44,937 bases of DNA, from NCBI GenBank assembly GCA_016185845.1, contig JACPMV010000022.1:1-44937 (forward strand), given 5' to 3'. Source of the stretch: Candidatus Woesearchaeota archaeon (GTDB lineage Archaea > Nanobdellota > Nanobdellia > Woesearchaeales > GW2011-AR4). The translations under genes were made by a program, and so were the position numbers. Positions 38,468-42,803 of this stretch are shown piece after piece. How positions within the stretch are numbered: the stretch's first letter is position 1; each line of letters opens with the position of its first letter. Below the pieces are notes generated by a model that was not told the origin of the DNA, ran no database searches, and saw nothing but the letters and a program-made list of their open reading frames with translations.

Positions 38468-40040
38468 ATGGAACAGAATTTTGAAAAGCCAAAGGATGTA
38501 AAAAAAGTAAGCGAAACTATCTGGGAAATACCAACCAGTTATAAGAAAGGTATGTTGGTACCAGCTAGGATTTATGCTACAAAAAAACTCCTTGATGGAA
38601 TGGATAATGGGGTTTTTAACCAGGTAACAAATGTTGCTTGCCTTCCAGGAATTCAAAAGTATAGTTTCTGCATGCCAGATGGGCACTGGGGATTCTGAGT
38701 AAGTTAATTCTTATTCAGCCCTTGACGGTTTTCCCATCGGCGGAGTTGCTGCTTTTGATTCAGAAACAGGAGTTATTTCTCCGGGCGGAATCGGCTTCGA
38801 CATAAACTGCGGAATGCGATTAGTTACAACTAATTTAACTTTCAAGGAAGTCCAGCCAAAATTAAGGGAATTAGTTGACACAATGTTCAGGACAGTTCCT
38901 TCAGGCGTTGGCGCTAAAGGTTTTGTCCAGGCTACAAAGCCGCAATTCAAGGAAATAATGACAGACGGCTCAAGATGGTGCGTTGAAAACGGATTTGGAT
39001 GGAAGGAGGATTTGGAGAGAACAGAAGGATATGGGAAGATTGAATGGGCCGATCCTGAGAAAGTTTCATCAAAAGCATTGGACAGGGGCATAAATCAGCT
39101 CGGTACATTAGGCTCAGGAAACCATTATCTTGAAATCCAGGTCGCAAAAGCAGAAAATATTTTTGATGAAGAAATGGCAAAAAAATTTGGAATCCATACC
39201 CCTGAGCAGGTTGTCATAATGGTTCATTGCGGCTCAAGAGGGTTTGGCCACCAGATTGGCACGGATTATCTAAGGATTTTTGAAGAGAATACAATGAAAA
39301 AATATAACATTCATGTTTACGACAGGGAGCTTGCATGCGCGCCTTTCCAGAGCAACGAAGGCCAGGATTACTATAAGGCAATGGCGTGCGCCGCAAACAT
39401 GGCATTTGCAAACCGCCAAGTCATTTTGCACAGGATAAGGGAAGGATTTTCAAAAGTTTTCCATACAGATGCTGAAAAGCTTGAAATGCACATGATCTAT
39501 GATGTTGCGCATAATATCGCAAAACTGGAAGAGCACACTGTTGACGGAAAAAGAAAAAAGCTTGTTGTGCACAGAAAAGGAAGCACAAGGGCTTTTCCTC
39601 CAAAACATCCCGAGCTTGCGCCGATTTTCAAGGAAACAGGACAGCCAGTCATAATAGGAGGCTCGATGGAAACAGGAAGTTTTTTATTGGTTGGGACGCA
39701 AAAAGCAATGGACGAGACATTCGGCTCAACAGCCCACGGCTCAGGAAGGACAATGTCAAGAACTGCTGCAAAGCACCAGGTTCGCGGAGACCAACTGCAG
39801 AAAGACATGGAAAAAAGAGGGATATATGTCAAGGCAACTTCAATGTCGGGGCTTGCTGAGGAAGCCGGATTCGCATATAAGGATATAAATGATGTAGTTG
39901 ATGCTGTTTCAAAAGCAGGAATAAGCAAACCGGTCGTGTCGCTTTTCCCTCTGGGAAATATCAAAGGGACTGCTAACTTGAATATTATAAATCTGTTTTT
40001 TGCAGCAATATTGCTTTTATTTTTGATTTTAGTTCTTTAA
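38468..40040 (+). CDS. rtcB: tRNA-splicing ligase RtcB, two exons join(38468..38693,38725..40040), 513 aa when spliced
   Basis: GGAGG RBS; MPDGHWG-Y-GFPIGGV restored by splicing; GFDINCG, GTLGSGNHYLE, HCGSRG, HNIA, HRKG, HGSGR, YKD. Confidence 0.93.
38694..38724 (+). other. 31-nt BHB intron in rtcB mRNA
   Basis: GGGG [AT|T] CTGAGTAAG ttaatt CTTATTCAG CCCT [TG|A]: 4-bp central helix, two 3-nt bulges, 9-bp intron stem, in-frame TGA. Confidence 0.88.
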
Positions 40041-40234: not shown

Positions 40235-40465
40235 ATGGATATTTCACAATATGATTTGGTGATTAAGAGGCATGTTTTTGAGCGCGCTATGCAGCGCGGA
40301 ATACATCCTGATATGATTGAAGATACTTTGTTAAAAGGAAAGATCAAGAGATTCGGAAAACACGGAATAAAATTCATCAATAAGGGTTCGAAAAGAACAA
40401 CAGTATGTGTTGGTGAATTGGTCGGGAACAGGCTAAAGATTTTAACAATTGAGGAGGGCAATTAA
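40235..40465 (+). CDS. DUF4258-like toxin
   Basis: RHVFERAMQRGIHPDMIEDTL...LKILTIE. Confidence 0.7.
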   Translation: MDISQYDLVIKRHVFERAMQRGIHPDMIEDTLLKGKIKRFGKHGIKFINKGSKRTTVCVGELVGNRLKILTIEEGN

Positions 40466-40466
40466 A

Positions 40467-40769
40467 ATGAGAAAATGCACGGAATGCAGCGGGTCTATGC
40501 AGCAGCTAAAGGCAAAAACTCCTGAAGGAGTTGAGTATAGTTACTTTAAATGCCTAAAAGACGGAGAAGAAATAGTTGACATGAAACAATTGCATGAAGT
40601 TGCAGAACGCTATAGAACATTAAAAAAATATAATGTAAAACTCTCGAAATGGGGCTTGAGTCTCGGATTAAGGATTCCGAAAGAACTTGTTGAAAAATAC
40701 AAATTAAAAAATGAAAAGGAAGTCTCAATTGTTCCGGAAAAAACCGGACTGAGAATTATAACATCTTAA
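40467..40769 (+). CDS. Zn-ribbon plus AbrB/MazE-like antitoxin
   Basis: CTECSG..FKCLKDGEE; SKWGLSLGLRIPKELV. Confidence 0.78.
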   Translation: MRKCTECSGSMQQLKAKTPEGVEYSYFKCLKDGEEIVDMKQLHEVAERYRTLKKYNVKLSKWGLSLGLRIPKELVEKYKLKNEKEVSIVPEKTGLRIITS

Positions 40770-41471: not shown

Positions 41472-41900
41472 ATGGTTAAATACAAATTTCTTGAGGATAT
41501 TGCAATAGCGGATATAGCCTACGAGGCATACGGCAAAGACTTGAACGAATTGTTTGAGAATGCCGCTATGGCAATTTTCGAGCTGAGCGCGGACATCAAA
41601 ACAGTCGAAGCAAAAGAAAAAATTGAATTTGAGCTTGAAAATGAGAAACTGGATAATCTGCTTTATGACTTCCTGTCTGAAATCCTGTTTCTTAAGGATT
41701 CAAAATACATGGTGTTCAGGAAAGTAAAAGTGGATTTGGAAGAGGGAAATCCGAACAAACTGAAGGCAGTGATGCATGGCGATACCATCAATCCAAACAA
41801 GCAGCATCTTGAGAATGACATTAAGGCTGTGACAATGCACATGTTTGAGCTGAAAAAAGATAAAGGAGGGTATACTGCAAGGATTGTATTGGATATTTAA
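41472..41900 (+). CDS. Archease (RtcB cofactor)
   Basis: YKFLED..ADIAYEAYGKDLNELFENAA, IKAVTMH, ARIVLDI. Confidence 0.93.
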   Translation: MVKYKFLEDIAIADIAYEAYGKDLNELFENAAMAIFELSADIKTVEAKEKIEFELENEKLDNLLYDFLSEILFLKDSKYMVFRKVKVDLEEGNPNKLKAVMHGDTINPNKQHLENDIKAVTMHMFELKKDKGGYTARIVLDI

Positions 41901-42784: not shown

Positions 42785-42803
42785 GTTTAGCTTAAAAATC
42801 TAT

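Follow-up and report, generated by a model that had tools for sequence, protein, structure and literature searches.

The window analysed here, i.e., the whole stretch of 44,937 nucleotides at positions 1 to 44,937 of contig JACPMV010000022.1 (Candidatus Woesearchaeota archaeon, assembly GCA_016185845.1), encodes the RNA ligase RtcB in two pieces separated by 31 nucleotides (positions 38694 to 38724, forward strand). This DPANN (Woesearchaeota-type) archaeon has a single rtcB gene, whose pre-mRNA very probably contains the insert as a genuine bulge-helix-bulge (BHB) intron. A preliminary description of the window had proposed that RtcB synthesis would depend on the splicing endonuclease EndA and on RtcB itself. 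The core of this proposal is supported by homologous introns in related species, by intron-less alleles at the exact site, by covariation within the predicted structure, by purifying selection on the exons and by the presence of a single rtcB gene together with genes for EndA and archease.

Interruption of rtcB and predicted fold of the insert

The first open reading frame (ORF) of rtcB (38468..38698, forward strand) encodes 76 amino acids ending in MPDGHWGF, followed by a TGA stop codon at 38696-38698. The downstream frame is open from 38703, reads GFPIGGVAAFD...DINCG and terminates at the stop codon 40038-40040. The break at MPDGHWGF and the resumption in another frame, both stated in the preliminary description, are confirmed by these ORFs and by the split match to the Pfam RtcB profile (PF01139). 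Exon 1 (38468..38693, forward strand), which comprises 75 codons and the first base of a split Tyr codon, matches profile positions 1-24 with 24.8 bits, and exon 2 (38725..40040, forward strand), from the second and third bases of the Tyr codon through the stop codon, matches positions 26-426 with 528.5 bits. The single profile position lost at the break is the Tyr with the split codon.

Excision of positions 38694 to 38724 (the intron of type A, see below) produces GGA-TAC-GGT, i.e., HWGYGFPIGG, and yields a frame of 513 codons with no other stop. The junction HWGYGFPIGG had been predicted beforehand, and it matches intact orthologues of the same genus: the predicted spliced product is identical to the intact sequence CMPDGHWGYGFPIGG, and seven congeners have an uninterrupted rtcB gene with CMPDGHWGYGFPIGG at the intron site. 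The earlier remark that shifted boundaries would introduce Asp in place of Tyr also holds, a shift of one nucleotide yielding GAC. A cut after the second nucleotide of each bulge is the only one of ten offsets that restores W-G-Y, and it is the same offset that the BHB geometry predicts. The motifs DINCG, GSGNHY, HCGSRGFGH, AHN and AHGSGR, which we take from the Pyrococcus structure literature to serve in metal binding and guanylylation, are all read in exon 2, so that the unspliced mRNA would yield, as had been anticipated, a 76-aa fragment lacking DINCG and the other motifs.

The RNA corresponding to positions 38670-38745 has a predicted folding energy of -30.6 kcal/mol, compared to -19.2 +/- 2.9 kcal/mol for shuffled sequences (z = -3.88; none of 200 shuffles folded as well). 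This fold, together with the enumeration of possible cuts and the conservation of pairs, delimits a central helix (H) in which the GGGG of exon 1 (38688..38691) faces the CCCT of the intron (38719..38722). It consists of GGG/CCC (38689-38691/38719-38721) and a possible fourth G.U pair (38688/38722). The helix is flanked by a 5' bulge (A T / T, 38692..38694), with the predicted cut after 38693, and by a 3' bulge (T G / A, 38723..38725), with the predicted cut after 38724; in the minimum-energy fold, the latter is a 4-nt bulge (38722-38725). On one side, the intron forms a hairpin (h', 38695..38718) with a 9-bp stem (38695-38703/38710-38718) and a 6-nt loop (38704-38709). On the other side, exon-exon helices totalling 13 bp are formed between 5' strands located within 38674..38688 and 3' strands located within 38726..38741 (38685-38688/38726-38729, 38678-38683/38733-38738 and 38674-38676/38739-38741). 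All these elements are on the forward strand. The defining arrangement of a BHB motif, two 3-nt bulges on opposite strands with a 4-bp helix between them, is present here in a relaxed form. The BHB fold announced in the preliminary description is upheld both by the folding energy and by the agreement between the BHB cut and the junction that the reading frame demands. Its statement that the outer helix is imperfect stands only in part: this helix, although one nucleotide off the canonical register, is long, and every one of the 11 type-A sequences of the RNAalifold consensus retains it.

The structure suggests how the transcript could be processed. The exon GGGG would pair with the CCC(U) of the intron, with the 9-bp hairpin on one side and the exon-exon helices on the other, and alpha-type EndA would cut after the second nucleotide of each bulge. 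RtcB and archease would then join the 2',3'-cyclic phosphate and 5'-OH ends of the exons, restoring the Tyr codon and the 513-codon frame, and the 31-nt intron would be released, probably in circular form. Since the spliced product is the ligase itself, new RtcB would require RtcB already present, and RtcB synthesis would be self-dependent, with a positive loop.

Probable introns at six sites in rtcB and inserts in cbf5

The genus was surveyed in 43 species genomes, 33 of which have an rtcB match; the N-terminal region is readable in 31 of them and is missing at contig ends in G014 and G023. Three situations are found among these 31 congeners. Nine carry an intron of the same type as that of the window (type A; 29, 30, 30, 30, 30, 31, 31, 31 and 33 nt), the differences in length being located in the loop, whose sequence is also variable. 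Nine have a different BHB intron of 33 nt, located 7 nt farther upstream, where it separates the His codon from the Trp codon (type B), and 13 have no intron at either site. No sequence of the survey combines types A and B. The preliminary description had suggested that orthologues might contain inserts with covarying stems at the same site; such introns, with compensatory changes, are indeed present in eight other species of the genus, and two more distant loci also carry type-A homologues. Some of the intron-bearing loci encode proteins only 69-77% identical to the RtcB of the window.

Further introns were identified in the rtcB genes of relatives: mini-introns of 12-13 nt between PGG and IGFD (L022, L023, L067 and L094), a 32-nt intron between DI and NC (L042 and L043), a 31-nt intron between D and INC (L108) and an intron, also of 31 nt, that splits the Trp codon (L068). 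This brings the number of BHB sites to six within about 110 nt of rtcB, in the stretch that encodes the catalytic N-terminal region, in this archaeal family, and some genes of relatives contain two introns each. The junction derived from the coding sequence coincides with the BHB cut, with three to four of the four H pairs formed, in all 26 unique intron-bearing sequences of type A, type B and the Trp-codon site, a set that includes more distant Woesearchaeota metagenome-assembled genomes (MAGs). At the mini, DI/NC, D/INC and Trp-codon sites, each intron has one coding-compatible cut for which four of four central-helix pairs form and the bulges are as expected. Outside the genus, five more candidate interrupted rtcB genes (G064, G067, G071, G073 and G080) emerged from a family-level search of 70 genomes from 12 genera.

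Several irregular loci were encountered in the course of this survey. In L035 (G012) and L044 (G041), an intein-like insertion immediately follows DIN, at the position of the catalytic RtcB Cys, and long open frames in the family-level search point to further cases, so that the same short stretch of rtcB hosts both inteins and introns. In L043 (G042), which has two introns, 48 nt (VAAFD...SPGG) are also missing between two GGCGGA repeats, perhaps through a real deletion or a collapse of the assembly. A 5' fragment of rtcB (L041, G050:C49:1600-2300) stands isolated 2.7 kb upstream of the complete type-B gene; it ends at ...CATTGGGG, which is the type-A intron site, and is followed by an unrelated lipoprotein-like ORF. 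In the scaffolds of L033 (G032) and L035 (G012), N-gaps duplicate or join rtcB alleles, mimicking split genes, and the 'split' rtcB of G032 was rejected as such a scaffold artefact.

Covariation was examined in 25 unique sequences of types A and B, aligned in register with the cuts, for nine pairs, i.e., those of the central helix and the outer five of the intron hairpin. Standard pairs occupy 92.0% of the cells, compared to 62.9 +/- 2.5% in shuffles (none of 500 as high) and 36-49% with slid partners. The cells changed on both sides number 67, versus 26.2 in shuffles, and seven of the nine pairs are affected. Of the central-helix pairs, 10-44, 11-43 and 12-42 each form in 24-25 of the 25 sequences. 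Within type A alone, the stem shows C-G/U-A and G-C/A-U exchanges, with a G.U intermediate. The exons also bear a footprint of the intron. Over five codons on each side, third-codon identity reaches 0.90/0.89 in type A and 0.90/0.74 in type B, compared to 0.61/0.67 at the same codons of intron-less alleles of the genus; farther away, all classes have values of 0.4-0.6. Given this identity and the retention of the exon-exon helices in all type-A sequences, exon nucleotides are constrained, or co-inherited, with the intron.

We compared the distribution of the introns with a tree of the proteins encoded by exon 2 (77 rows, after removal of 17 loci with a short or missing downstream part and of eight duplicates). 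The nine type-A rows require nine changes on this tree and the 11 type-B rows require 11, which is no better than shuffled labels. If only well-supported branches are considered, at least six changes (type A) and at least nine changes (type B) are still required. Approximately unbiased (AU) tests, performed with 34 of the 77 rows and with groups chosen after the first tree had been seen, reject a single clade for both type A (p = 4e-12) and type B (p = 9e-11). Taxa with a 25% difference in their RtcB proteins and a saturated synonymous divergence (dS) have almost the same sequence in their type-A introns and about 15 nt of flank. This pattern suggests repeated loss of the intron and transfer of an intron-bearing segment between lineages, for which homologous recombination in this extremely conserved stretch would be the simplest route. 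The scatter points to repeated gain, loss or recombinational exchange rather than to a fixed regulatory device.

Other genes of the same 43 genomes were searched for interruptions. The 42 SecY matches have no stop or frame split, none of the 34 EndA matches is interrupted and the 36 archease matches contain no stops. In cbf5, six congeners (loci L133-L138 from G045, G009, G001, G056, G024 and G048) carry an insert of 12-26 nt between the D and the P of the catalytic GTLDP motif, with a perfect BHB geometry (four of four central pairs and an outer helix of at least five pairs). The cbf5 gene from the genome of the window (G000:C46:766-1107) is devoid of this insert, as is that of G010. BHB introns are thus not confined to rtcB, cbf5 being another host; both genes encode RNA-processing enzymes, and both insertion regions code for catalytic motifs. 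We tentatively suggest, as a possibility that we regard as rather doubtful, that woesearchaeal BHB introns are mobile and repeatedly enter, or recombine within, the regions where genes for RNA-processing enzymes encode catalytic motifs; in rtcB, they would have become self-referential, making the splicing machinery unlosable and RtcB expression bistable. This suggestion is based on the six sites within about 110 nt of rtcB and on the one site of cbf5, at the catalytic Asp.

Host genome and competing explanations

The genome to which the window belongs is a MAG of 1.11 Mb (60 contigs, 81% complete, 2.3% contamination). A profile search of its contigs detected a single rtcB locus. Similarly, four genomes with an intron and a completeness of at least 90% (G001, G003, G016 and G056) have no rtcB match other than the interrupted locus. 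Two genes encoding alpha-type EndA (200 aa, 92% identical, with the domains PF02778 and PF01974) are present in G000:C44:90-692 and G000:C16:229-930; the preliminary description had considered that endA might be absent. They lie on two short contigs, and congeners have one EndA; a mixture of strains or a recent duplication could account for the two near-identical copies. We detected no further EndA paralogue at E <= 10 in this 81%-complete genome. Aragorn identified 19 tRNA genes and predicted introns in 13 of them, many of the tRNA genes being probably too disrupted for recognition; with introns predicted in 13 of 19 tRNAs, the organism appears to be dependent on the splicing pathway.

The whole genome was also scanned for other mRNA introns, which gave 31,701 BHB-like candidates. 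A strong-looking hit near position 42800 of the window turned out to be an ordinary junction between two genes. When nine first introns were compared to this genome with blastn-short, no copies were found elsewhere, the only match being the self-match.

Several observations weigh against a BHB intron in rtcB. The motif is non-canonical: the fourth pair of the central helix is G.U, and both the minimum-energy and the consensus folds have 3 bp with a 4-nt bulge. The nearest exon-exon helix competes with this fourth pair. In the alignment, the outermost central pair (9-45) is G.U in 12 of the 25 sequences and unpaired in 13, type B having a G/A mismatch. Types A and B are moreover two sites, so that some of the covariation reflects differences between them, and the shuffle tests are inflated by the relatedness of the rows. 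In the scan, motifs joining ORFs are not in excess (679 versus 637-686 with shifted ends), and a strict filter retained 42 versus 31-42 in controls, which would accommodate a handful of true cases; in the absence of an excess, such introns are not pervasive, and rtcB is the sole mRNA intron case seen in this genome. A genome 81% complete could still hold a second rtcB gene. The 21 listed sequencing runs holding the locus are DNA metagenomes, mostly from groundwater, and none is RNA; splicing, the exact cut sites, the circular intron and any feedback role are what we infer from the sequences. A joint in one DNA contig (38691 to 38725, with two other letters in between) was identified as the intron-less allele of a relative from the same community, not as spliced RNA. 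Finally, the EndA found is of the alpha type only, and in the older view alpha-type enzymes cut strict BHB motifs only. In DPANN, an alpha4 EndA with an L3 loop is associated with disrupted tRNA genes in the part of PMC5829648 covered here.

An error in the assembly, with a chimeric contig or a misjoined strain variant, comes to mind because the genome is metagenome-assembled, with its 2.3% contamination, and because scaffolds of relatives do contain such faults (in G012, two alleles are joined across an N-gap, and G032 has a gap artefact). The preliminary description had itself raised the possibility that raw DNA lacks the 31 nt. They are, however, bridged by contigs built independently from runs of two studies, which cover positions 38568-38731 and 38678-38737 with no differences; the best-matching run may be the source sample. 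Since 17 other species-level assemblies from the genus, and additional MAGs, contain homologous inserts, the chance of an artefact appears negligible. It is also very improbable that the 31-nt insertion killed the gene and that rtcB is a decaying pseudogene, even though its frame is broken and its unspliced product has only 76 aa. It is the sole rtcB gene of a genome in which most of the tRNAs found have predicted introns, its Pfam match extends over the full length (528 bits) with no other stop, and nine species retain this insert, with compensatory changes. Between intron-bearing species, the rates of nonsynonymous (dN) and synonymous substitution are 0.02-0.13 and 1.1-2.3, respectively, i.e., dN/dS is about 0.04-0.09 on both sides of the insert (for the 55 codons preceding the intron as well as the 160 codons that follow DINCG; the values for the 'last 200 codons' of L001 pairs are void, being out of register after a one-codon insertion). 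For exon 1 of the window compared to relatives, dN is 0.02-0.11, with a dS above 1.2. An intron-less pair gives the same picture. The pseudogene check proposed in the preliminary description, a second rtcB gene, thus found no match in this genome, and both exons are under purifying selection.

A ribosome might alternatively hop or shift across the 31 nt, in the style of T4 gene 60, without RNA splicing, as the stop codon directly after the break and the stable hairpin in the gap could suggest. Yet the conserved Tyr codon is split 1+2 across the insert, and hopping cannot build such a codon; matching take-off and landing codons are absent; inserts at six codon phases or positions share the BHB geometry at the coding-derived junction; and their lengths vary freely between 12 and 33 nt. 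We consider such recoding hardly credible. The intron could, on the other hand, be real and also have been selected as an autoregulatory switch, the level of RtcB or the splicing load determining how much rtcB mRNA is completed, in line with the feedback or addiction device imagined in the preliminary description. The dependency follows from a single rtcB gene with an intron, six BHB sites are clustered in rtcB and none is found in SecY, EndA or archease, and conservation of the intron stems and of the flanking exon sequence is strong despite a dS above 1. However, 13 of the 31 readable congeners dispense with an intron at sites A and B, both intron types are scattered on the exon-2 tree with a single clade rejected, and the mini-introns of cbf5 in six relatives require no ligase-specific logic. 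The loop is moreover positive, less ligase leading to still less, and not homeostatic. With the loop positive and the intron dispensable in 13 of 31 congeners, we regard a selected regulatory role as unlikely. A genuine BHB intron remains the reading that we favour for positions 38694 to 38724.

Relation to known introns and neighbouring features

A BHB intron in the pre-mRNA of crenarchaeal cbf5 was reportedly described by Watanabe in 2002, and Yoshinari is said to have linked it in 2006 to hetero-oligomeric EndA. An intein has also reportedly been observed in Pyrococcus RtcB. Like the inteins seen here at DINC in relatives, the rtcB introns look selfish, have a patchy distribution and occupy the most conserved catalytic part of the gene; inteins differ in being removed at the protein level, in being much larger and in having an unrelated sequence and mechanism.

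The cbf5 intron of Crenarchaeota is the closest parallel: in both cases, a short BHB intron is located in a protein gene encoding an RNA-processing enzyme, its removal is presumed to involve the tRNA splicing endonuclease and ligase, and its presence varies among relatives. Unlike cbf5, the host gene here is the ligase itself, in the DPANN (Woesearchaeota-type) lineage, and only alpha-type EndA was found, whereas crenarchaeal cbf5 is reportedly associated with the hetero-oligomeric (alpha-beta)2 enzyme. Splicing has been demonstrated experimentally for cbf5 and is deduced for rtcB. In the part of the study covered here, the history of the crenarchaeal cbf5 intron involves one gain and about two losses (Yokobori 2009, PMC2738675); rtcB differs in having six sites, with a scattered distribution for which clades are rejected.

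The relaxed-BHB introns of tRNA genes (HBh' and hBH) in archaea whose EndA has a broad specificity follow the same logic, with two bulges, a short helix and at least one flanking helix, and have similar lengths (11-60 nt), according to the sections of Kaneta 2018 (PMC5829648) covered here. There is also a likeness of lineage, aragorn predicting introns in most of the tRNA genes found in this genome. In contrast to tRNA introns, the rtcB intron is part of an mRNA, and the exon strands of its motif are coding sequence, with a footprint on synonymous sites. Another parallel is the unconventional cytoplasmic splicing of HAC1/XBP1 mRNA, which in metazoa is ligated by RtcB (mentioned in the abstract of PMC8718801). 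There too, RtcB joins mRNA halves after an endonuclease has excised a short intron bounded by stem-loops, and the frame changes, but the endonuclease is IRE1 instead of EndA, the reaction belongs to a regulated stress response and the target encodes a transcription factor, not the ligase.

The literature searched, supplements and subscription journals lying outside the search, yielded no account of BHB introns in rtcB. The part of Schwarz 2020 (PMC7714728) covered here names a single archaeal mRNA intron, that of cbf5 ('one mRNA'), and the portion of the reference list of PMC12397907 (2025) covered here has cbf5 papers only. Although introns of this kind are known, the host gene, the lineage, the type of endonuclease, and the multiplicity and scatter of the sites are new. 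Archaeal BHB introns in protein genes rest in this literature on essentially one case, cbf5, and rtcB would be the second host. Introns in rtcB are frequent, being present in 18 of 31 species of one genus; they belong to another superphylum than the cbf5 case and are accompanied by an endonuclease of the homomeric type. The many sites and their scatter form the best available data set on the gain, loss and movement of BHB introns. As the host would complete the splicing reaction, nature offers here a self-dependent circuit open to reconstruction and testing. In many DPANN genomes, gene callers will list rtcB (and cbf5) as a broken or absent gene, which distorts inferences on metabolism and completeness.

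At its 3' end, the rtcB gene of the window encodes an unusual hydrophobic C-terminal tail of about 23 aa (39969..40037, forward strand) past the RtcB domain. It is shared with the congeners L008 and L011 and absent in 13 others aligned; it starts after the usual ...IKG end, where these 13 congeners have a stop codon. The gene for archease, the co-factor of RtcB, is uninterrupted and located 1.4 kb downstream of rtcB (41481..41897, forward strand), and the two genes are on one contig in most congeners. Two small overlapping ORFs (76 and 106 aa; positions 40235-40769 of the window) lie between rtcB and the archease gene.

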